This document shows, in pieces, positions 9,160-36,027 of a stretch of 64,000 nucleotides of DNA. This DNA comes from a virus. A model generated the notes under the pieces. That model saw only the letters and a list, made by a program, of their open reading frames with translations. It did no database searches and was not told the DNA's origin. Where the stretch lies: IMG/VR virus record IMGVR_UViG_3300033143_002031, positions 64,001 to 128,000 of that record; one strand, 5' to 3'. Within the stretch, counting starts at the first letter, position 1. Every line of letters begins with the position of its first letter. Position numbers and translations under genes: made by a program.

Positions 9160-11030
9160 CCTCCAATCACGCCCCTTGCGAACCTCTCACAGAGGCCGCT
9201 TTTCGACCCTTTTCGGCCTTTGCGACTGATTGGTCGCACCCCCAATGATCGAGACCCCAAAGCTAGATCGTGCTGAATTGCCCCTCTCACGGCCCTTGTG
9301 GAGCCCTTCTGCCTGCCCCTGGGACGGACCGCCCTGAGAGTCCTGACGGCCTTTGGTGCGGCCCTCCTGAGCCCTCGAAGATCGGTCTCGCGGAACCCGT
9401 CCCTCGGCCGGCGGAGAAGACCTCCCTCTCTACTCGCGGGCGCAGGAGACCGGCGGGACAGAAGAACGAAGTTCCCCTAAGCACGACTGAGCTACCCCTG
9501 ATACTAGTCCCCCAAGAGAGACCTACGGAGGAGCCTGTGCAGTGGGCTGGCGTTCTGGCCCTTGCGACCTCGTGCGACCTCATGGTCGGCCCGATTTCAC
9601 CAGGTTCCGGGGAGTTTTCATACACTTACGGCCCGGAGTGTCTGAAAACTACCCCTTTTTGGGGGGCCTGAGATCGCGCCTCGCGACGGCCACCCCCGGT
9701 CCTGAAAACTCCCCCATTCCGGGGGGTTCCACGACACGACCGCCAATAGGGGGAGTTTTCAGTGACGCCGCCGCCCTTCGCAGGGAAGCGGGTTCCGATC
9801 TTCCATCCGCCGGCCCTGCGACCTGCCCCTCCTATGGGAGGCACGGGCAGTCGTTGTCGGGTCAGGGGGCGGGGGCTCGCGGGGGCGGCCCCGGGGGCAG
9901 AAGGGTTCTTCCGCTGGCAGAAGGATTCTTCTGATCGGGTGATAGCCCAATGGTATCGGGCACTTAGGTGCTAGCGTTCGGGGACCCGGGACCCTACGAT
10001 GATCGGTCTGGCCCTGGGGCAGGTAGTTTGCTCCTCCGCCCCTACCCCTGGTACTATGCCCTTTGACCCGCTAGCCACGCAGCTAACGGGTCAGACCAGG
10101 GAGGTAGATCGTGGCTAGAGGGACATCACGGAGAGTCCATCTCACGGGCCGAGTGCCGAGGGAGGGTAGGCCACTGCTCTGGGCCTTCGGCTACGCGGAC
10201 TACGGGGACCTGTTCGAGGTCGAGCCCGAGAGCGCCCGGCAGATGGTGAAGCGCGGGCAGTTCGACCCGAGCGACCTGGCGTCGGTGTGCCGGCTCTGGT
10301 GCAAGCGCCACGGACACGAGGCCGAGCGATGAGGTTGAAAACTCCAGGCAACCCGCCTACGATCCCCGGGCCGGCGGTGCCTCCTTCCCGAACCCCCCTG
10401 GGAGGTGGGGTGTCGCCGGCATCTGGCACCCACTGCGTGTGCGGTCGACGAAAACTCAAGGGTTCCGGGCACCTACCCCGCGACCCCGTCACGGTGGCCA
10501 TCACGCAACGCCTTGAAACCATTAGAGAATCGCGCATCACGATCACCACCACGCCCCCGATCGACCTGCCTGCCCTCGCGGCCCTGCACCAAGAGGAGCA
10601 GGAGCTACGCGCGAAGCTGGTTCACATCGCGCACGCGAAGTAGGTTTGCCCGGCCCCCGATCTCGGGGCCGCACCCCCGTCGACCTCGACCCTCGATCTC
10701 TCCTCTCGATCTCCGCCCCCGTGCCAGGGAGTTTTCACCAATGGGGGGTACCCCCCGCCTGCCGCCCACAAAAACTACCACTCCGGTTCGTCGGTCTAGT
10801 GGGAGTTTTCGGTGCGCCCGACCCCCGTGCGTCTTGAGGAGGACCCTGTCAATAGCATAGATGAATGCCATTGACCTCCCGACCTGCTCTGCCCGAGAGC
10901 CCCCGGGGCGCCCAAGACCAGAGAGCCCACCCCCCGCGCATACCGCGCCCTCTAAGTCAAGAGCATCCATGATTGCCCTTGACACTGCCCTCCCTTTGGG
11001 GTAGGCTGGGTCCTCGCATGCGAGTTTGAG
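9160..11030. other. largely non-coding region with clustered TGAAAACT(C/A)C motifs and G/C tracts
   Basis: motif at 9611(-), 9643(+), 9703(+), 9752(-), 10336(+), 10728(-), 10802(-); only two short plausible ORFs (10111..10332, 10329..10643). Confidence 0.6.
10979..11007 (+). promoter_or_regulatory. class I promoter
   Basis: TTGACA-N17-TAGGCT upstream of ORF 11040. Confidence 0.6.
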
Positions 11031-24983: not shown

Positions 24984-25050
24984 CATCCCCCTCTGGCTGT
25001 GCGATGCTGGGATTATCAAGTCGTGGATGGTTTCCGCGAAGGAGGACAGA

Positions 25051-25386
25051 ATGGCCCAGAAGAAGACCCCCGCAGACGCCCATGCCCAGCGTGTCCTGAA
25101 GACGATCGAAAAGAACGTCTTCGGCAAGAACCTCCGCCAGGTCGATCGGATCGAGGCCGAGTGGTACCTCATGTTCTTGTACCCCAAGGGTGCAGGGCCA
25201 AGAGACTGCGTGCAGATCGAGACGGGCGGTGCGGGCTCGACCACGATCTTCTGGAGTACCCAGGGCCACCTGCGCGAGAAGGGCGAGGTGCCGTTCTCCG
25301 AGGCCACCAAGAAAGCGTTCGCAGCGAAGCTGAAAGGCATCGCCGGCAAGATGGCCCGCTCGTGGGCCTCGAAGGCCGCCGCGTAG
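25051..25386 (+). CDS. hypothetical basic protein
   Basis: AAGGAGG RBS; TTGACA at 24980. Confidence 0.65.
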   Translation: MAQKKTPADAHAQRVLKTIEKNVFGKNLRQVDRIEAEWYLMFLYPKGAGPRDCVQIETGGAGSTTIFWSTQGHLREKGEVPFSEATKKAFAAKLKGIAGKMARSWASKAAA

Positions 25387-25441
25387 CACCCGCCTGAGCC
25401 CCCAGACGCCCTCAGACACCCCCTAAGCCCCCAGACATGAC

Positions 25442-25479
25442 AAGGCCCCCGCGTGCGCGCGAGCGCTCACAGGGGCCTT
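25442..25479. terminator. hairpin between convergent transcription units
   Basis: AAGGCCCC...GGGGCCTT inverted repeat just after the 3' end of the tRNA array. Confidence 0.45.
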
Positions 25480-25488
25480 CTGGGCTCA

Positions 25489-25563
25489 TGGTGACCTGGA
25501 CGGGACTCGAACCCGCGTTTCCCGGCTTGAAAGGCCGGAGTCCTTCCTGTAGACGACCAGGCC
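25489..25563 (-). tRNA. tRNA-Glu(TTC)
   Basis: anticodon arm CCGGC CTTTCAA GCCGG; TTCGA T-loop; CCA. Confidence 0.92.
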
Positions 25564-25565
25564 GA

Positions 25566-25640
25566 GGGAGCCCCCGGGCGGAATCGAACCGCCTCCTCCG
25601 GAGTACGAAACCGGCACGCCACCTTTTGCGCCTCGGGGGC
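25566..25640 (-). tRNA. tRNA-Thr(CGT)
   Basis: acceptor GCCCCCG/CGGGGGC, U73; loop TTCGTAC. Confidence 0.75.
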
Positions 25641-25641
25641 C

Positions 25642-25717
25642 TGGAGCCCACGTCGGGAGTCGAACCCAAAAACTCCTGCTTACAAGGCAGGCGCTCCGCC
25701 ACCGGAGCCACGCGGGC
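25642..25717 (-). tRNA. tRNA-Thr(TGT)
   Basis: CCTGC CTTGTAA GCAGG; CCA. Confidence 0.92.
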
Positions 25718-25742
25718 AGGCTGCGACGATCGAGCATCTTCG

Positions 25743-25816
25743 TAGTGACTCTGAGGGGAATCGAACCCCCATTGCCGGATTGAGAGTCCGGTCTCCTACC
25801 GTTAGAGGACAGAGCC
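25743..25816 (-). tRNA. tRNA-Glu(CTC)
   Basis: CCGGA CTCTCAA TCCGG. Confidence 0.9.
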
Positions 25817-25936
25817 GAGCGGCATCCCCCTTGTACCTAGCAAAGGGGGCGTGCCCACACCCCGAAAGGGGCTCGGTCCAACGACCGATGAGACGCAGCT
25901 AGGAGCGCCGTGCGCGCACGAGAGGCCGAAGCCCCA

Positions 25937-26011
25937 CGGTGCCGATCACGGGAGTCGAACCCGTCTCTCCAGGATGGCGACCTGGCGTCTTCCCACGTAG
26001 ACTTGATCGGC
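25937..26011 (-). tRNA. tRNA-Gly(GCC)
   Basis: CCAGG TCGCCAT CCTGG (C33). Confidence 0.8.
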
Positions 26012-26012
26012 A

Positions 26013-26100
26013 TGGCGGCGAGCGGAGGTCTTGATCCCCACGCCTTGTGAGCGCGCACCGATTAGCAGCCGGGCTCGGGCTCCTGCCCAATTCACTCGCC
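26013..26100 (-). tRNA. tRNA-Ser(GCT), atypical D and T arms
   Basis: loop CTGCTAA; long variable arm; G73; CCA. Confidence 0.85.
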
Positions 26101-26106
26101 AAACTC

Positions 26107-26193
26107 TGGCGGCAGACGGAGGTCTTGATCCCCACTCCTCTCAGAGCGCACCGCTTTCGAGGCGGGCTCGGGCTCCTGCCCAATTCATCTGCC
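26107..26193 (-). tRNA. tRNA-Ser(CGA), atypical D and T arms
   Basis: loop CTCGAAA; long variable arm; CCA. Confidence 0.85.
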
Positions 26194-26277
26194 AGGTGCC
26201 CGCATGGCTGCACGGGCGACACCGCACCCCCACACGGGCGCGCTCCGGCCCCTCATACGGGATAATAGGGAGCGCAA

Positions 26278-26363
26278 CAGCGGCAGACGGGTGACTCGAA
26301 CGCCACGCCTCTCAGCGCGCACCGCCTTCCAAGCGGGCCTGGTCCCTGACCAGTTCGTCTGCC
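26278..26363 (-). tRNA. tRNA-Ser(GGA)
   Basis: loop TTGGAAG; long variable arm. Confidence 0.8.
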
Positions 26364-26365
26364 AG

Positions 26366-26451
26366 TGGCGGAGGGCGGAGGTCACGATCCCCACACCTCT
26401 CGGTGCCTGTCGCTTTCAAGACGATGGCGAGCCCTGCTCGCTTCGCCCTCC
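26366..26451 (-). tRNA. tRNA-Ser(TGA), atypical D and T arms
   Basis: loop CTTGAAA; CCA. Confidence 0.82.
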
Positions 26452-26620
26452 TCGCTTCAAGCTCCTCGATCCATCTCGCGAGGACGTGAACCCCAGCCAA
26501 GGCATGGTCTGGAGGGATACGTGTGTCGCGATTCCAGTTACGGCAGATGGATTCGAGAGCGATCTTGGCTCGTCTGATGTCGTCTATCTCAGGAGGCATC
26601 CTGAGACCGGCAGTATATCA

Positions 26621-26694
26621 CGGTCGGGCACCGGGGAGTCGAACCCCGCGCCTCCGGTCCCCCAGACCGGCGTCTCACCCCGAGACTAGTGCCC
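26621..26694 (-). tRNA. tRNA-Pro(GGG)-like, 6-nt anticodon loop
   Basis: acceptor CGGGCAC/GTGCCCG, A73; CCGGT CTGGGG ACCGG. Confidence 0.7.
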
Positions 26695-26731
26695 GGTGTG
26701 CCCCCTCCGAAGAGGGGACGAGAAAACTCGA

Positions 26732-27295
26732 TCAGTCGGACTCCAGAGCCCCGTGCCAGTAGACCCACGAAGCCCACTGGTCTGGCAAGGAATCACTCGC
26801 GTCGATGTGGAGAGCGACGACCGGCAGCGAGCGCGGCTTCACGGGCGTCCTCTTCAGGCGCATCCCCGCTTGCTGCGGCGTCCGGTCCCGCTTCCGATCA
26901 TTGCATGGGTAGCAGGCGGTGACGATGTTCTCCCAGACCGTCTTGCCGCCCCTCGACCTCGGTGTTACATGGTCGTAGTTGAGCTTACGGGTGGACAGCC
27001 TCTTCCCGCAGTACTGGCAGGTCCAGTTGTCCCGCGTCAGCACGTTCATGCGCGAGAACCGAACCGCCTTCTTGCGCGCGACCGCCCGCAGGAGCCGGAT
27101 GACGGCCGGCATCTTCAGCACGAACGTCCAGCCGTACTCCTTCGCCCGATCTGCCTGATCGGGGGTCATGAGGGCCTCATCGTAGCTCTCTACGACTTCG
27201 GCCTTGTGTTGGAAGAGCAACGAGACGGCCCGTTGCCAGGACACGATGCGGTGGGGTTGGTACCCCAGGTCCAGGACCAAGCATTGGCTAGACAT
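26732..27295 (-). CDS. HNH endonuclease (McrA-like)
   Basis: RDNWTCQYCG, DHVTPRSRGG, NIVTACYPCNDRK; AAGGAGG RBS. Confidence 0.92.
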   Translation of the reverse strand: MSSQCLVLDLGYQPHRIVSWQRAVSLLFQHKAEVVESYDEALMTPDQADRAKEYGWTFVLKMPAVIRLLRAVARKKAVRFSRMNVLTRDNWTCQYCGKRLSTRKLNYDHVTPRSRGGKTVWENIVTACYPCNDRKRDRTPQQAGMRLKRTPVKPRSLPVVALHIDASDSLPDQWASWVYWHGALESD

Positions 27296-27330
27296 GACCG
27301 CCTCCTTTCTTGGTGCGAAAACTCTACCAG

Positions 27331-27413
27331 TGCGAGCGGGGGGAGTCGAACCCCCATGACCTCGCGGCCGGCGGGTTTTGAACCCGCTGCGTCTACCATT
27401 TCACCACGCTCGC
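27331..27413 (-). tRNA. tRNA-Leu(CAA)
   Basis: GCGGG TTCAAAA CCCGC; long variable arm. Confidence 0.92.
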
Positions 27414-27419
27414 GCGGAG

Positions 27420-27503
27420 TGCCCGCTGCGGGACTCGAACCCGCACGCCCGCACGGGGCGCCCGGGTTTAGGCCGGGTGCGTCTACCGTTTCACCAAGCG
27501 GGC
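27420..27503 (-). tRNA. tRNA-Leu(TAA)
   Basis: CCCGG CCTAAAC CCGGG (C33). Confidence 0.85.
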
Positions 27504-27505
27504 AA

Positions 27506-27592
27506 CGGTGCTGCGGACAGGAGTCGAACCTGCACGACCTCTCGGCCACTGGCCCCTCAAGCCAGCGCGTCTACCAATTTCACCACCGCAGC
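27506..27592 (-). tRNA. tRNA-Leu(GAG)
   Basis: CTGGC TTGAGGG GCCAG. Confidence 0.92.
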
Positions 27593-27630
27593 AGGCACAA
27601 AACACAACTTTCAAAGTTATGTTTTGACAT

Positions 27631-27716
27631 CGGTGCCAGGGAGAGGAGTCGAACCTCCACGACCTTTCGGCCACTCGGGTCTGAGCCGAGCGCGTCTACC
27701 ATTTCACCACCCTGGC
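27631..27716 (-). tRNA. tRNA-Leu(CAG)
   Basis: CTCGG CTCAGAC CCGAG. Confidence 0.92.
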
Positions 27717-27717
27717 A

Positions 27718-27791
27718 TGGTGGGCGATGAGGGAGTTGAACCCCCGACTCTGGTGTGTGGGACCAGCATCTTTCCGTTCGACCAATCGCCC
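27718..27791 (-). tRNA. tRNA-Val(CAC)
   Basis: CTGGT CCCACAC ACCAG (C33); A73; CCA. Confidence 0.8.
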
Positions 27792-27800
27792 AGAAATCTC

Positions 27801-27877
27801 TGGTCGGGCAGAAGGGATTTGAACCCCCGACCTCCGCGTCCCGAACGCGGCGCGCTACCAGGCTGCGCTACTGCCCG
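27801..27877 (-). tRNA. tRNA-Pro(CGG)
   Basis: CCGCG TTCGGGA CGCGG; CCA. Confidence 0.93.
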
Positions 27878-27960
27878 AATGAGGGGCCGACCGCACACTC
27901 GCTTTGCCCAGGCCGTGAAGCCTCCATCCTCCTACCGGGTCAGGCCAGCCCGACGCCCCT

Positions 27961-28032
27961 CGGTCGCACGGGAGAGACTTGAACTCTCGCGGTCACGGAT
28001 ATGAGCCGTGCCTCCCACCTTGGGACCGTGCG
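27961..28032 (-). tRNA. tRNA-Met(CAT), elongator-type (or Ile2)
   Basis: CACGG CTCATAT CCGTG; fully paired acceptor stem. Confidence 0.75.
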
Positions 28033-28109
28033 GAAGCGGGGGGAGGATTTGAACCTCCGATCTTTTGGTTATGAGCCAAATGGGGACGACCAGACTCCCC
28101 TACCCCGCA
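28033..28109 (-). tRNA. tRNA-Met(CAT), initiator-like
   Basis: 1:72 mismatch, GCGGGG/CCCCGC acceptor, TTCAAAT T-loop; only two G-C pairs next to the anticodon loop. Confidence 0.75.
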
Positions 28110-28185
28110 GGAGCCCTTGGCGAGACTCGAACTCGCAACTCCCACCTTCGGAGGGTGGTGCCCGTTCCAATCGGGCCGCAAGGGC
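28110..28185 (-). tRNA. tRNA-Arg(CCG)
   Basis: CCACC CTCCGAA GGTGG. Confidence 0.88.
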
Positions 28186-28201
28186 ATGGTAAACTCTGGG
28201 T

Positions 28202-28348
28202 ATGGCAAAACGTCAGTACGAGAAGCCGACCTTCAAGCACGTCAAGGGGTTCGCCTTCATCATGCGCTGCACCCCGTGCCCTGATTGCAGGAACGGTGTG
28301 ACCTGCCATCGCTGTAGTTGCTGCCACGGCTGCCACGGCTGCCACTAG
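28202..28348 (+). CDS. 48-aa Cys/His-rich peptide
   Basis: MAKRQYEKPTFKHVKGFAFIMRCTPCPDCRNGVTCHRCSCCHGCHGCH*; fills the spacer between two tRNA-Arg genes; below the ORF-track cutoff; no clear SD. Confidence 0.6.
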   Translation: MAKRQYEKPTFKHVKGFAFIMRCTPCPDCRNGVTCHRCSCCHGCHGCH

Positions 28349-28420
28349 CCTCCCCACGAGGACTCGAACCTCGATCTCAAGATCCGTAATCTTGCGTGAT
28401 GTCCATTTCACTATGGGGAG
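28349..28420 (-). tRNA. tRNA-Arg(ACG)
   Basis: CAAGA TTACGGA TCTTG. Confidence 0.88.
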
Positions 28421-28422
28421 AG

Positions 28423-28494
28423 ACCAGCCGGCGGGACTCGAACCCGCGATGCACGGGAGTAGAAGTCCCGCTCCCCTCCAGTGGGGTCGGCTGG
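28423..28494 (-). tRNA. tRNA-Arg(TCT)
   Basis: CGGGA CTTCTAC TCCCG. Confidence 0.82.
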
Positions 28495-28495
28495 A

Positions 28496-28570
28496 CGGAG
28501 GCCCCGGGGGGAGTCGGACCCACCGATTCCTGGTTTGCAGCCAGGCGTCTTTCCGTTTGACTACGGGGCC
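28496..28570 (-). tRNA. tRNA-Cys(GCA)
   Basis: CCTGG CTGCAAA CCAGG; U73. Confidence 0.88.
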
Positions 28571-28626
28571 AGTAGCTCGTCCGGCTTCACCGGCACAGAG
28601 CGGACGGCGGGACTCGAACCCGCCTC

Positions 28627-28700
28627 TGGTGCAGGTAGGGGGAGTCGAACCCCCGATTCGAGGGTGGAAACCTCGCGTCTTTCCGTTAGACCACACCTGC
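28627..28700 (-). tRNA. tRNA-Gly(TCC)
   Basis: CGAGG TTTCCAC CCTCG; CCA. Confidence 0.9.
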
Positions 28701-28706
28701 GAAACA

Positions 28707-28779
28707 GCGATCTGTGCGGGACTCGGACCCGCTTCTCCGGGCTCGGCCCGGTGTTCGTCCTATGAACTACATCGACCGC
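28707..28779 (-). ncRNA. tRNA-like RNA with a 5-nt anticodon loop
   Basis: T-arm GCGGG TCCGAGT CCCGC; stem CCGGG CCGAG CCCGG; GCGGTC/GATCGC closing stem. Confidence 0.5.
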
Positions 28780-28845
28780 TGCCTACTCGCGCCCGCTCTT
28801 CTCAGGGTACTGGTCGACGCTTCCCCTGAGCCTCCTGGGAGCTTT

Positions 28846-28921
28846 CGGAGCCCCGAGCGGGGATCGAACCCGCCATCTCCGCCATACCAAGGCGGCGAAT
28901 CACCACTGATTCTTTCGGGGC
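28846..28921 (-). tRNA. tRNA-Thr(GGT)
   Basis: CCGCC TTGGTAT GGCGG; U73. Confidence 0.88.
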
Positions 28922-28975
28922 AAGCGCCCCCTACCCGCTGCAAGGCTAGGAGGGAATCGAACCCTCGTAGGGGAC

Positions 28976-29049
28976 TGTTGGACACGGAGGGAATCGAACC
29001 CTCATCTCCGGCTTGCAAGGCCGGCGTCTTCCCGTTTGACGACGCGCCC
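28976..29049 (-). tRNA. tRNA-Ala(TGC)
   Basis: CCGGC CTTGCAA GCCGG; G3:U70. Confidence 0.9.
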
Positions 29050-29124
29050 GTGTCCAGGTGAGGCAAGCTCGGGAATCAGGTTGCGCTACCCTCGTCCCAA
29101 CGCAAGGCGCGTCCTCACCCAGAG

Positions 29125-29197
29125 TGGATCGTGCGAGAGTTGAACTCGCGACCTCCTGCATGCGAAGCAGGTGCTCTCCCAACTGAGCTAACGACCC
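29125..29197 (-). tRNA. tRNA-Ala(CGC)
   Basis: CCTGC TTCGCAT GCAGG; G3:U70. Confidence 0.92.
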
Positions 29198-29200
29198 AAA

Positions 29201-29310
29201 CTGCCGGCGCTCTTACCACTTGAGCTACGAAGGCCGTTTTAGGGCCTCCGACAGGACTCGAACCTGCATCTCCGGACTCGCCGACGCTCTACCACTTGAG
29301 CTACGGACAC
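29201..29310 (-). ncRNA. tRNA-and-a-half (pseudo-tRNA plus a duplicated 5' half)
   Basis: two near-identical D-arms, one T-arm, no intact anticodon loop. Confidence 0.55.
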
Positions 29311-29352
29311 CAATTGGCGACCGACGGGACTCGAACCCGCACCTTCGGCTAG

Positions 29353-29425
29353 TGGAACACCGGGGAATCGAACCCCGAACCTCCTGGCTGCCAGCCAGAC
29401 GCTCTCCCAGTTGAGCTAGTGCCCC
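29353..29425 (-). tRNA. tRNA-Ala(GGC)
   Basis: TCTGG CTGGCAG CCAGG; G3:U70. Confidence 0.92.
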
Positions 29426-29426
29426 A

Positions 29427-29501
29427 TGGTGGGCGTGGAGGGATTTGAACCCCCGATCTTCTGCGCGTCGAGCAGACGTCTTGCCACTTGACCACACGCC
29501 C
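29427..29501 (-). tRNA. tRNA-Val(GAC)
   Basis: TCTGC TCGACGC GCAGA (C33, G37); CCA. Confidence 0.85.
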
Positions 29502-29510
29502 GAAAACTTC

Positions 29511-29585
29511 TGGTACCCCGAGTGGGAATCGAACCCACGACCTGAGCCTTATAAGGACCCGTCTCTGCCACTGAGTTACCGGGGC
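29511..29585 (-). tRNA. tRNA-Ile(TAT)
   Basis: GGGTC CTTATAA GGCTC; A73; CCA. Confidence 0.85.
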
Positions 29586-29630
29586 TCCGACTGCTCGGAG
29601 CCATGTATTCGTTCCATCGGAACCTCCTTC

Positions 29631-29705
29631 TGGTGGGGCGAGAGGGACTCGAACCCCCGTCAACCGATTCATCAGACCGGCGCTCTGCCACTGAACTACC
29701 GCCCC
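29631..29705 (-). tRNA. tRNA-Ile(GAT)
   Basis: CCGGT CTGATGA ATCGG; CCA. Confidence 0.88.
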
Positions 29706-29706
29706 A

Positions 29707-29782
29707 TGGAGCCCTCGGCGGGAGTCGAACCCGCAACCTCCGGAGTAGGAATCCGACGCACGTCCAGCCGTGCTACGAGGGC
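29707..29782 (-). tRNA. tRNA-Arg(CCT)
   Basis: TCGGA TTCCTAC TCCGG; CCA. Confidence 0.9.
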
Positions 29783-29783
29783 A

Positions 29784-29861
29784 TGGGGTGATCGACGGGA
29801 CTCGAACCCGCTAGGGCCGGGATCACAACCCGGTGCCGCGACCGCTTTGGCTTCGACCACC
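29784..29861 (-). tRNA. tRNA-His(GTG)
   Basis: CCGGG TTGTGAT CCCGG; G-1:C73; CCA. Confidence 0.9.
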
Positions 29862-29868
29862 ATACTTC

Positions 29869-30017
29869 TGGCGACTCTCCCAGGAATCGAACCCGGGCCT
29901 CCGAGACAAGGCTCCTCTCATGTACCCGCTTTGCCCGGCGGTGCGAGGATCGTTGCTTGGAATCGCAGGGGACAACCCACGACCCGCTCGGTGTTCTGCC
30001 ACTACCACTATCGAGCC
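29869..30017 (-). ncRNA. tRNA-like RNA with an 81-nt structured insert replacing the anticodon loop
   Basis: D-arm-like 5' part, CCGAG/CTCGG stem, canonical T-arm, G73, CCA. Confidence 0.6.
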
Positions 30018-30020
30018 GTA

Positions 30021-30105
30021 TGGCTCCCCAGGGAATCGAACCCCTTGCGCGCCACCACACATAATAGCGCGATCGGGTTACAGCCGATCGTGTGGAAAGG
30101 GAGCC
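30021..30105 (-). tRNA. D-armless tRNA-Tyr(GTA)-like RNA
   Basis: GATCGG CTGTAAC CCGATC; long variable arm; TTCGATT T-loop; 9-nt linker instead of a D-arm. Confidence 0.65.
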
Positions 30106-30112
30106 AAACTCA

Positions 30113-30190
30113 AGGTCCGCGTGGACGGATTTGAACCGCCGTTATGCCGGCTCCCAAAGCCGGTGTCTGACCAGACTAGACGACACGCGG
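30113..30190 (-). tRNA. tRNA-Pro(TGG)
   Basis: CCGGC TTTGGGA GCCGG. Confidence 0.9.
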
Positions 30191-30191
30191 A

Positions 30192-30267
30192 TGGTGGGGA
30201 GCCTCGGAATTGAACCGAGATTCGTGGATCTTCACTCCACTGTCCTACCGGGTTAGACGAACTCCCC
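30192..30267 (-). tRNA. tRNA-Phe(GAA)
   Basis: GTGGA GTGAAGA TCCAC; CCA. Confidence 0.88.
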
Positions 30268-30268
30268 A

Positions 30269-30342
30269 TGGCGGGACCGACCGGACTCGAACCGGCTTTA
30301 CCAGCGTGACAGGCTGGCGCCTTTCCTAATGGCTACGATCCC
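30269..30342 (-). tRNA. tRNA-Asp(GTC)
   Basis: CCAGC CTGTCAC GCTGG; G73; CCA. Confidence 0.92.
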
Positions 30343-30345
30343 AAT

Positions 30346-30541
30346 GCACCTCCGGCCAGGGCGTATCGTGGCGCGGGACGCTTCATGCGTCCCTCGGAGG
30401 CGCGGCGGGCGACCTGAGAATCGAACTCAGCGGACAGCCGGTTTTGGAGACCAGCCCGCGTACCCTGCGCGTCACCCAAAGGACACCTCCGGCCAGGGCG
30501 TATCGTGGCGCGGGAAACTCTCTCGTCTCCCTCGGAGATGC
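30346..30541 (-). repeat. two copies of a ~58-nt three-way-junction element (30346..30403, 30483..30541)
   Basis: 32 identical nt (30347..30378 = 30484..30515); the variable hairpin is paired in both copies. Confidence 0.8.
30403..30477 (-). tRNA. tRNA-Trp(CCA)
   Basis: CTGGT CTCCAAA ACCGG; G73. Confidence 0.85.
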
Positions 30542-30615
30542 AGCACCGACCCTTTCGGGATAGTGCTCCGCCCGTTGACGTTGCTCCCTTTCGGGTCTGA
30601 CGCCTCGGTCTCGGT

Positions 30616-30688
30616 TGGTACGGCAGGAGGGAATCGAACCCTCACACATCGGCTTCAAAGGCCGAGTGGCTACCCTGAGCACCACCGT
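30616..30688 (-). tRNA. tRNA-Gln(TTG)
   Basis: TCGGC CTTTGAA GCCGA; CCA. Confidence 0.85.
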
Positions 30689-30689
30689 A

Positions 30690-30768
30690 TGGCTGGGGTG
30701 GAGGGAATCGAACCCCCACGATGACCCGGAGTCAGAGTCCGGCGCTCTACCAGTTGAGCTACACCCCA
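30690..30768 (-). tRNA. tRNA-Gln(CTG)
   Basis: CCGGA CTCTGAC TCCGG; G73; CCA. Confidence 0.92.
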
Positions 30769-30787
30769 ATAGCGAGGAGATTGACAA

Positions 30788-30862
30788 TGGGGGGTCCGGG
30801 GGGACTCGAACCCCCACCTGACAGAGTAAGAATCTGCTACGCTCCCATTACGCCACGGACCC
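30788..30862 (-). tRNA. tRNA-Lys(CTT)
   Basis: GCAGA TTCTTAC TCTGT; CCA. Confidence 0.88.
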
Positions 30863-30865
30863 ACA

Positions 30866-30942
30866 GGGCTGGCCAGGCTGGAGTCGAACCAGCAACCTTC
30901 CGGGTAACAGCCGGATGCTTCTTCCTACTGAGCTTCTGACCA
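30866..30942 (-). tRNA. tRNA-Asn(GTT)
   Basis: TCCGG CTGTTAC CCGGA. Confidence 0.9.
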
Positions 30943-30943
30943 A

Positions 30944-31019
30944 TGGCGGGCCAGGTTGGAGTCGAACCAACAACCATCGGACTAACAATCCGCCGCTCTT
31001 CCATTAGAGCTACTGACCC
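30944..31019 (-). tRNA. tRNA-Asn(GTT), second copy
   Basis: GCGGA TTGTTAG TCCGA; CCA. Confidence 0.88.
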
Positions 31020-31121
31020 ATGATGACCCCGGAGCCTGGGTGAGCCCCGAGGTCGAAGATGCTCGATTGTCACAGACCGAACAGCCGTCGCTGGGAGGTT
31101 CGCGAGAGAACCTCCTTCCAT

Positions 31122-31197
31122 CGGTGGGGGCAACAGGACTTGAACCTGCTCAATCCGGGGTAAAAGCCCGGGACCCGTCCAGTCGGGCGCTACCCCC
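31122..31197 (-). tRNA. tRNA-Lys(TTT)
   Basis: CCGGG CTTTTAC CCCGG; first tRNA of the array. Confidence 0.88.
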
Positions 31198-31266
31198 TGA
31201 GTTTGCGGTCTCAGGGTCACCGTTTCAGTCGTTGTCTCACCCTCCCCTCCTTCTTCTTCGAGCCCA

Positions 31267-31305
31267 GAAACGAGAAAAGCCGCCTCGGTTTCCCGGGGCG
31301 GCTCT
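31267..31305 (-). terminator. intrinsic terminator upstream of the tRNA array
   Basis: AGAGCCGCCCCGG-GAAA-CCGAGGCGGCTTTT then TCTCGTTTCT. Confidence 0.75.
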
Positions 31306-31380
31306 CGCGTGGTGCGTGTGGTGCGAGAGCCTTACCCGGGGCTACCCTCCTGGAGCGCGATGGCAGCATAAAACACGGTA

Positions 31381-31410
31381 TTACCGCCATCGGAGGGTAG
31401 ACACGTCCAT
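31381..31410 (-). promoter_or_regulatory. leader peptide uORF MDVSTLRWR*
   Basis: ATG GAC GTG TCT ACC CTC CGA TGG CGG TAA; its coding sequence pairs with the downstream leader RNA. Confidence 0.6.
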
Positions 31411-31752
31411 GAGGACGGTCGTTTGACCTCCGTGCGCTTCAACCGGGTATGTTCGATATGCCGTTGCATCGTGCTTCTCGGTAGCTCCCGGAAGGTGATG
31501 GACCTCCCGCTCGCATCTCTCACTGTGTCAAGCGCAAACCTCAGAGTCAAGCGGAAAAAGCGCACCGCTGTCACTTTTTCCTGGCTCTTTGGTACGTACT
31601 GCTCTTGTACTTCTGTGGGAGAGGTGATCCCGGCTCCAAGACCGGCGACCAATGGTTGCGAAATGGGCCGTGACGATTGCTCTTGACGCCGTTGGCAATC
31701 TCCTGCTATGTGGTATAGGTGAGTCGGGGATGAGTCCCCGAAGGAGGCGCTC

Positions 31753-32262
31753 GTGAGGAAGCACCTGAGCTACCTGTCTTATGTTGTCAGGCACCGCTGG
31801 TTCGTGCTCGTGGAGTGCGTGCGCCTCGGAATCATCTGGCGTGGACTCGTCCACGACCTGTCGAAGTTCCTGCCGAGCGAGTGGTTCCCCTACGTGAACT
31901 ATTTCAACGGCGAGTGGCAGGGCAAAGCGTCGGTCCCGGACGGGTACAAGTGCCCGAAGCCGGTCAAGGCAGCCTTCGATCTCGCGTGGCTCCTGCACCA
32001 GCACCGGAACAAACATCACTGGCAGTTCTGGCGTCTCAGGGAAGACGACGGCGGGACGAAGCTGATCCCCATGCCGCCGAAGTACGTGAAGGAGATGCTC
32101 GCCGACTGGCGCGGGGCCGGTCGCGCGCAGGGCTTCGACAAACTCGGCCCCTGGTACGCGAAGAACCACCTCAAGATCGAGCTACACGCGGAGACGCGCG
32201 ACCTCCTGCACTCCCTCATGGAGCCCGACGAGCTACCACCGAAGGTGCGGGAGAAGTCATGA
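31753..32262 (+). CDS. HD-like conserved phage protein (DUF5662-like)
   Basis: HRWFV, HDLSKF, HQHRNKHHWQFW, EMLADW. Confidence 0.65.
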   Translation: MRKHLSYLSYVVRHRWFVLVECVRLGIIWRGLVHDLSKFLPSEWFPYVNYFNGEWQGKASVPDGYKCPKPVKAAFDLAWLLHQHRNKHHWQFWRLREDDGGTKLIPMPPKYVKEMLADWRGAGRAQGFDKLGPWYAKNHLKIELHAETRDLLHSLMEPDELPPKVREKS

Positions 32263-35200: not shown

Positions 35201-35383
35201 TGCGAGGTCGCGATAAATAGGGGCCTCGCATACCTCTGTGGACGGATGCACGAGGACTCCGAGACCTGCCACAAGTACTACTGCCAGGAGCACTTGTACC
35301 ACGCCGACGTGGGGCCAGGAGGCGGGCTCTGTGCGAGGTGCTTGGAGGAGCGGGAACGGCGAGAGGGGCTGGAGGACGAATGA
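32259..35383 (+). other. coupled hypothetical ORFs (32259..32879, 32872..33843, 33840..34346, 34334..34636, 34647..35000, 35108..35383)
   Basis: overlapping ORFs; Zn-ribbon motifs in 32872 and 35108. Confidence 0.6.
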
Positions 35384-36027
35384 AGGTACCTAGCAAAGCG
35401 CAGATCGAGGAGATGGGGGCTCATATGGAGGAGATGGCCCGAGAGACGCAGGGGCTCGGGCCGCCGGACCCTGAGCATCTGAGTGACTGCGGGGACGGCG
35501 AGGTCAGGCCGGTCCTGGTCTATCCGAGCCCTCGACTGCGGGACGAAACAGCCGAAGTCCCGGAGTTCGATGACCGGCTCCGCAAACTCGTGGCTGACCT
35601 GGCGACGACGATGTACACGTTCAACGGCATCGGGCTCGCTGCCACGCAGATCGGCGAGCCGGACCGGGTGTTCGTCGTGGACGTCTTGAACGGTGCCCCG
35701 CCCCAGAAGGGGCGACCGACGAACCAGCTTCTCGTCGCTGTCAACCCGATCGTGTGGCCCGTACCCGGCAAGACCAAGCGAGACGCGGAGCGATGCCTCT
35801 CGTTTCCAGATGCCGTGGAAGTGGTGGAGCGACCGGCGAGTGTCATCATGAAGGCGTTCGACCACCATGGGAAGCCCTACGCCCTCGGCTGTAGCGCCGA
35901 CCTCGGCCGCGCGATCCAGCACGAGTACGACCACCTCGAAGGCCGGCTGCTCATCGACTACATGGCGAAGAAGAAGGCCCGCGACCTGCGGCGTCGGATT
36001 CACTCCAACGGGCGGCGAAGGTGGTGA
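35380..36027 (+). CDS. def: peptide deformylase
   Basis: GIGLAATQIG, ERCLS, HEYDHLEG. Confidence 0.95.
   Translation: MKVPSKAQIEEMGAHMEEMARETQGLGPPDPEHLSDCGDGEVRPVLVYPSPRLRDETAEVPEFDDRLRKLVADLATTMYTFNGIGLAATQIGEPDRVFVVDVLNGAPPQKGRPTNQLLVAVNPIVWPVPGKTKRDAERCLSFPDAVEVVERPASVIMKAFDHHGKPYALGCSADLGRAIQHEYDHLEGRLLIDYMAKKKARDLRRRIHSNGRRRW

Follow-up and report, generated by a model that had tools for sequence, protein, structure and literature searches.

The sequence analysed here (the window, 64,000 nucleotides) corresponds to bases 64001-128000 of the 184,744-bp IMG/VR virus record IMGVR_UViG_3300033143_002031 (63% G+C). ARAGORN analysis identified an array of thirty-nine tRNA genes on the minus strand, headed by tRNA-Lys(ttt), namely tRNA-Lys(UUU), while the GC skew places nearly all else in the genome on the plus strand. 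Beyond the head of the array, third-position G+C (GC3) is flat from approximately 31200 to 31750 and then climbs for a plus-strand gene encoding a DUF5662 protein. Because of this GC3 profile, the skew and the positions of the tRNAs, the leader described below can be assigned to non-coding DNA of a divergent region, at the array's 5' end and on its strand (Table 1). Two plus-strand ORFs (31040-31426 and 31203-31400) were rejected, as GC3 gave no coding signal and indels of 1-6 nt break their frames. Large tRNA arrays of phages are usually discussed as constitutive cargo, used for codon adaptation or to replace host tRNAs cut by defence nucleases. A 22-nt inverted repeat was also identified, its copies (31054-31075, minus strand, and 25721-25742, plus strand) being located in spacers between tRNA genes, at a distance of 5.3 kb; 21 of the 22 positions pair on the minus-strand transcript, bracketing thirty-five tRNAs in the manner of an rRNA-operon processing stem, and the upstream copy is recognisable in the relative L090. 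Its position around most of the array hints at one long precursor.

Table 1. Features of the leader, the head of the tRNA array and the neighbouring gene, in window coordinates
Feature	Position	Strand	Sequence and parts	Basis or support
tRNA array, 39 genes	25489-31197	minus		ARAGORN
tRNA-Lys(ttt), first array gene	31197-31123	minus		ARAGORN
Spacer from T to first tRNA	31195..31267	minus		no promoter-like site
T, intrinsic-terminator-like hairpin	31268..31302	minus	GCCGCCCCGG-GAAA-CCGAGGCGGC (31302-31279), then TTTTCTCGTTT (31278-31268)	98% paired in 11 sequences
H2, putative antiterminator	31292..31341	minus	CCCCGGG-TAA-GGCTCTCGC (31341-31323) with GCGAGAGCC-GC-CCCGGG (31308-31292)	95% paired; compensatory changes in inner stem
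H1	31342..31400	minus	CTACCCTCC-GATGGCGG(T) (31400-31383) with (G)CTGCCATC...GGAGGGTAG (31367-31342)	base stem 99% paired; compensatory changes in upper stem
uORF MDVSTLRWR*	31410..31381	minus	ATG GAC GTG TCT ACC CTC CGA TGG CGG TAA	
H3 hairpin	31417-31404	minus	CGTCC tcat GGACG; holds uORF start codon (31410-31408)	93% paired
Hs, small hairpin	31428-31417	minus	GGTC aaac GACC	
SD-like GGAGG with Hs and H3	31404..31431	minus	GGAGG at 31431-31427	
Conserved single-stranded linker	31436..31472	minus	ACGATGCAACGGCA (31472-31459) and GGTTGAAGC (31444-31436)	invariant alignment columns
H0 hairpin	31489..31509	minus	CGGGAGG, loop tccatca, CCTTCCG	compensatory change
Probable promoter of leader and array	31522..31550	minus	-35 TTGACT (31550-31545), 17-nt spacer, -10 CACAGT (31527-31522)	sequence match
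DUF5662 gene	31753-32262	plus		third-position G+C rises

The leader is approximately 250 nt long and reaches further 5' than the element noted in a preliminary description of this DNA, to the hairpin H0 and a probable promoter. The promoter spacer contains a second box, TTGCGCTTGAC (31537-31527), of the type seen in a promoter family of this phage (TTGC[TC]CTTGAC-N17-TAGGCT-like). Thirteen copies of this family were identified, all on the plus strand, at 10973, 24974, 31677 and 42853 of the window and at nine further places in the genome outside it. The TTGC[TG]CTTGAC motif of the leader is common to these thirteen promoters; the leader is the sole minus-strand carrier of the family box, which its TTGACT-17-CACAGT promoter overlaps. 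Transcription would be expected to start near 31515. Most relatives retain TTGAC[GT]-17-CA(GGC/GGA/CAG/CTC)T, with only the second TTGAC box retained in L140 and L141. A scan of the minus strand from 25000 to 32000 for TTGAC-N17-19-[TCG]AnnnT returned the leader promoter as its only match, neither the stretch from T to the tRNAs nor the array itself holding a TTGAC-type promoter; the scan reaches TTGAC-type motifs, promoters of an unrecognised type lying beyond it. Just upstream of the leader promoter (31553-31581, minus strand) is an A-run/T-run inverted repeat, GGAAAAAG..CTTTTTCC, whose base runs are kept in relatives while its pairing is not clearly kept. Most copies of the plus-strand promoter family are followed by a 5'UTR hairpin with the loop ATGA(C/G)TT (for example, GGCGGATGACTTCCGCC) and, directly after it, an AGGGAGG ribosome binding site (RBS). 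The stems of these hairpins covary between copies, and they may serve as an operator for an RNA-binding protein of the phage.

The same leader recurs immediately upstream of tRNA-Lys(ttt), which again heads the array, in thirteen related metagenomic loci belonging to about nine lineages with 72-93% identity; these phages occur in marine-sediment samples. These relatives were found by a scan with the neighbouring DUF5662 protein, by a DNA pattern scan and by look-ups of close DUF5662 homologues; the 16-mer pattern scan of metagenomes gave mostly chance matches, with five true relatives recovered by blastn. Exact 25-30-mers found only one contig among viral contigs, and DNA contigs from the sequencing runs, when aligned to the leader, yielded only strain variants. 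Searches of a cultured-phage collection by megablast, blastn and tblastn gave nothing for the leader or for a neighbouring 466-aa protein, and a neighbouring 442-aa protein found only relatives of <34% identity there; with no close match in this collection, the phage therefore has no cultured relative and no host to which it can be assigned. A search for units of an upstream ORF (uORF) ending in R-W-R and a terminator before other phage tRNA arrays had been suggested. The leader does recur, in the thirteen loci, but the R-W-R codons are confined to the window and a small number of near-identical strains.

Conservation is much higher from the promoter through the T-run of hairpin T than in the flanks. 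In an alignment of eleven sequences, 88% of the cells assigned to H0, Hs, H3, H1 and H2 are paired, versus 40-46% when the partners are slid by 1-3 columns, and nine pairs have changed on both sides, a count reached by 0/500 shuffles. Compensatory changes back five helices (H0, H3, H1, H2 and T) and the G-U pairs fit the minus strand only. The fold z-score of the leader (-2.84) is modest when taken alone. A covariance model built from the leader (R1) gives every member 134-211 bits on the forward strand and finds one copy only in the genome, with nothing in twenty-two unrelated or distantly related loci and no copy in five more distant contigs carrying DUF5662. When the 4227 families of Rfam 15 were scanned at E <= 10, only tRNA passed its gathering threshold. 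The best hit to the leader was RcsR1 (24.6 bits against a threshold of 60), covering a hairpin and terminator only; the remaining hits (E 0.01-8) are far below threshold, and those on the leader strand likewise cover hairpin and terminator only.

The uORF and helices H1, H2 and T named in the preliminary description all lie on the minus strand where it had placed them. At the 5' end of the leader, H0 takes the compensatory form CGAGAGG/CCTCTCG in the group of L130, L090 and L138, while different local hairpins are located at its place in L089, L136 and L140. In the linker that follows, GGTTGAAGC is nearly invariant, only L089 differing; in a different fold the linker has a possible pairing partner in the 3' arm of upper H1 (CGATG/CATCG and CGGCA/TGCYG). 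H3 carries a compensatory change in L136 (CGACC/GGTTG), and the uORF offers the SD-like GGAGG a further partner, CCTCC, in a helix that is 86% paired. H1 has an asymmetric internal loop of 8 nt (gcgctcca) on its 3' side only. Its base stem, CTACCCTCC/GGAGGGTAG, is almost invariant and its upper stem is formed by GATGGCGGT/GCTGCCATC: here GATGGCGG/CTGCCATC becomes GATAGCGT/ACGCTATC in L089, a compensation, and G-U pairs change to G-C or A-U in L001 and in strains of run X1.

H2 consists of an outer stem, CCC(C)GGGT/GCCC(C)GGG, and an inner stem, GGCTCTCGC/GCGAGAGCC, the latter compensated as GGCTTTTGC/GCAAAAGCC in L089 and as GCGGCTTTCGC/GCGAAAGCCGC in L136. The outer stem is the real competitor of T and is invariant, so covariation cannot confirm it. 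T itself is a G+C-rich stem of ten pairs with one mismatch and a GAAA loop, followed by a U-run, as is typical of intrinsic terminators predicted from sequence. At -18.1 kcal/mol it ranks fifth among the twenty-three features across the whole 185-kb genome that combine a hairpin with a T-run. One compensatory change was found in its stem (GCCGCC/GGCGGC to GCCTCC/GGAGGC in L140), and the run holds only three U before an interruption in L130, L090 and L140. T ends 70 nt before tRNA-Lys(ttt) in the window, in agreement with the distance of about 70 nt first reported, and approximately 19 nt before it in L090, L138 and L139. A further hairpin, CCCTGAG/CTCAGGG (31195-31216, minus strand), has the first three nucleotides of tRNA-Lys(ttt) in its 3' arm; it is compensated as CCCGGAG/CTCCGGG in L001 and L134 and is absent in the relatives with the short spacer.

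H2 and T exclude each other because both use 31302-31292, and the terminator and antiterminator helices proposed earlier are thus borne out: a conserved alternative helix sequesters one arm of T. A separate promoter between T and tRNA-Lys(ttt) had been named as decisive against an attenuator; the motif scan found no promoter-like site in this spacer. Since there is no other promoter-like site, T is strong and the spacers shrink to approximately 19 nt, the array is probably reached through T. Taken together, an attenuator-type leader in front of the array is well supported by the sequence comparisons, and the leader would act as a structured transcription-attenuation switch setting the run-on of RNA polymerase into the tRNA array, a reading to which we give a probability of roughly one half. 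The leader RNA would be transcribed from a sigma-70-like phage promoter and end in the strong intrinsic-terminator hairpin T, the 5' arm of which could alternatively be locked into H2.

The main rival to this attenuation switch is a stand-alone small RNA gene, in which an RNA ending at T would either function in trans or be no more than a stable by-product, leaky read-through would supply the tRNAs and H2 would overlap T incidentally. The parts for such a gene are complete (a promoter, a conserved folded body of approximately 240 nt and a strong terminator), and a stable RNA ending at T would give the same pattern of conservation. Its invariant stems and the single-stranded motifs GGTTGAAGC and GGAGGGTAGCCCCGGGT suggest sequence-specific recognition, and the segment GCCGCCATC is complementary to GATGGCGG in some of the phage 5'UTR hairpins. 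However, in every locus the element is joined to the start of the tRNA array and shares its strand, with only some 19 nt before the tRNA in three relatives, and H2 is more stable than T and supported by covariation. As the array has no other promoter-like site, T would therefore not be an efficient terminator, which also counts against a stand-alone gene; we regard it as rather unlikely.

Processive antitermination, of the kind directed by put, nut or rRNA-operon (rrn) leaders, would have the leader protect RNA polymerase from termination at T and by Rho over the 5.7-kb untranslated array. A long untranslated operon behind a single promoter, the conserved hairpins just downstream of that promoter and upstream of a terminator, and the 22-nt repeat, suggestive of one long precursor, are all in keeping with it. 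The leader resembles HK022 put RNA and the rrn leader in being a promoter-proximal structured RNA ahead of terminators and a long untranslated transcript, but there is no sequence or family match. No boxA-like sequence was seen by eye, no Rfam family matched, and the overlap of H2 with T is not explained by this model, which is judged very unlikely.

For the attenuation switch, the choice between H2 and T could be made by refolding between two global conformations. In state A, H0, H3, H1 and H2 would form and lead to read-through. In state B, the 5' arm of H2 would be taken up by a 5' segment, the 3' arm of upper H1 by the linker and CCTCC by the upstream GGAGG, allowing T to form and terminate transcription. 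The local stability of H2 exceeds that of the T state by 3.5-8.6 kcal/mol in every lineage (the value for L136 being for a shifted register). H2 is thus always the more stable locally, and is made first, so that termination would need a helper. Over the whole leader, folds forced to contain H2 or T are within 1-9 kcal/mol of each other (L136 excluded, its H2 columns being misaligned). The state B fold is 83% paired across the eleven sequences, its helices being kept mainly in the closely related main clade and poorly in L089, L136 and L140. The balance might be tipped by a protein, by a small ligand or by a 30S subunit or ribosome bound where the SD-like motif and the uORF lie. Four other pairings were considered and rejected. 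Closure of the junction by TACCCGG/CCGGGTA fails in L095, L136, L089 and L133, where ACCCGG is deleted or changed; a TGAAGCGC/GCGCTTCA pseudoknot has uncompensated changes on its 3' side in L133, L090 and L089; the pairs of a GAAGC/GCTTT closing helix are invariant and uninformative, with one compensatory pair of L095 in a diverged stretch; and the first partner of TTGCGCTTGAC/GGTTGAAGCGCA probably lies in the promoter spacer and not in the RNA.

The preliminary description read the locus as a leader-peptide attenuator, in which uORF MDVSTLRWR would be translated and a ribosome stalled at CGA-TGG-CGG (for example, after cleavage of host tRNAs) would open H1 and favour the antiterminator, so that the phage would produce its tRNAs only when translation is under stress. 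The uORF is present, and the 5' arm of H1 is built from its codons 4-10. Its start codon is ATG or GTG in 14/14 sequences, through several independent changes that are all A/G. The distance from the start to a TAG just before H2 is 69, 72 or 75 nt, a multiple of three in every sequence, although these lengths derive from only about two independent indels. In L130, L136/L137 and L140/L141 the frame runs to this TAG, at the 5' arm of H2, where a terminating ribosome would cover that arm. The frame is open in all relatives but neither its length (7, 9, 16 or 22-24 codons) nor its codons are conserved: codon 8 is TAG in seven relatives (L133, L001, L134, L090, L138, L139 and L089), and in the near-identical metagenome strains the TAA of the window is CAA (in four of the four compared) and TGG is often TAG. 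Stops interrupt the span from the start to the TAG before H2 in the uORF frame of 9/14 sequences, compared with 0/14 in frame +1. A longer reading of the ORF (22-24 codons) was rejected, as a frame of this size is open about half the time by chance at this G+C and is interrupted in those 9/14. Conservation of codons 1-6 extends to all three codon positions; of the amino-acid codon changes found in codons 1-7, 6/6 are non-synonymous (0/6 synonymous), and several changes are compensatory at the RNA level, such as GGACG to GGTTG in L136, which offsets CGTCC to CGACC.

Initiation of the uORF also finds little in its favour. A caveat attached to the original proposal, that no GGAGG lies closer to the ATG than 16 nt, was confirmed; the long ORFs of the genome peak at 4-9 nt and a spacing of 16 is not enriched among them (four long versus eight short ORFs). 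In relatives the spacing is 11-16 nt, with L140 carrying GGCGGG in place of the motif. The ATG lies in the loop and stem of the conserved hairpin H3. The uORF thus has no RBS at a working distance, no conserved regulatory codons and no conserved stop position, and shows no sign in these alignments of being a conserved sensor peptide with sensor codons. A trp-type attenuator also needs RNA pairing that links the uORF helix to the choice between H2 and T, but H1 ends with its 3' arm next to the 5' arm of H2, without overlap, so stalling in a frame of 7-9 codons would have no direct route to that choice; alternative partners exist for CCTCC and likewise for the H1 3' arm, kept mainly in the main clade. 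Stalling at CGA-TGG-CGG as the trigger is judged very unlikely, and a link to anticodon nucleases is purely conjectural. Of the earlier proposal, the terminator/antiterminator leader on the array strand, conserved and covarying, stands, while the peptide sensor does not.

A looser coupling to translation would depend on occupancy of the segment by 30S or ribosome, whatever the codons, which would determine the GGAGG, upstream or downstream, that CCTCC pairs with and so select state A or B. Every lineage offers CCCTCC a choice of two GGAGG partners (for L136, GGAGGGTAT/ATACCCTCC upstream and GGAGGGTAG downstream), and the start codon, kept in 14/14, is also compatible with this idea. The objections from the SD spacing and the hairpin around the start codon nevertheless apply here too, and many alternative pairings are expected in an RNA of 62% G+C rich in GGAGG and CCTCC. 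We consider this coupling improbable.

Like the leader-peptide attenuators of trp, his and leu and the uORF-controlled genes of whiB7/ABC-F type, the phage leader shares the 5' arm of its terminator with an upstream antiterminator hairpin and has a short ORF overlapping the 5' arm of the preceding helix. In contrast to these, it has no conserved regulatory codons, its stop positions vary, it has no SD at a working distance and its start codon is in a hairpin; moreover, its helix 1:2 does not overlap the antiterminator and the operon encodes tRNAs rather than enzymes. With riboswitches and protein-controlled platforms (T-box, PyrR, TRAP) it has in common a structured and conserved 5' leader, the exclusive pair H2/T and invariant nucleotides in junctions and single strands. 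Unlike a T-box, however, it contains no T-box sequence or UGGN bulge, and it matched none of the 4227 Rfam families. The tRNA region of phage T4 shows delayed-early expression by read-through, with co-transcribed stable RNAs, and carries two small stable RNAs, a parallel to the stand-alone small RNA gene considered above. It thus resembles this locus in that a tRNA cluster is expressed by passing an upstream terminator and that extra structured RNAs belong to the unit, but there is no sequence relation and here a dedicated, conserved leader of some 250 nt with an antiterminator directly abuts the array.

The kind of device proposed, a terminator/antiterminator leader, is well known, whereas neither the RNA family nor its placement ahead of an array of phage tRNAs was found in Rfam or in a full-text literature search for a leader or attenuator before such an array. 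Should the attenuation switch be confirmed, the phage would control when its tRNA set is made, or how much of it. More tentatively, the leader might represent a new class of phage riboregulator, a bistable switch metering a nearly complete tRNA set in response to the state of the infected cell, the signal for which may be occupancy of the SD-like/uORF segment by 30S or ribosome, a protein of the phage or the host, or a metabolite; in that case the array would be expressed conditionally and not constitutively. The leader family is small and compact with a clear read-out (a 3' end at T versus read-through), and the finding that the sensor peptide is not conserved avoids its misleading annotation as a ribosome-stall sensor.

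Outside the window, a second terminator abutting tRNA genes was identified: a strong terminator-like hairpin (genome 46242-46407, plus strand; -19.5 kcal/mol, then TTTTTT) immediately precedes a separate tRNA-Gln(ttg)/tRNA-Ile(aat) pair. The phage possesses further translation-related genes, namely a tmRNA identified by ARAGORN (genome 61279-61687, plus strand, also outside the window) with the tag ANSDSYPEVRAAA, and a peptide deformylase (PF01327, E 9e-41; window 35338-36027, plus strand) encoded a few genes from the tRNA array.
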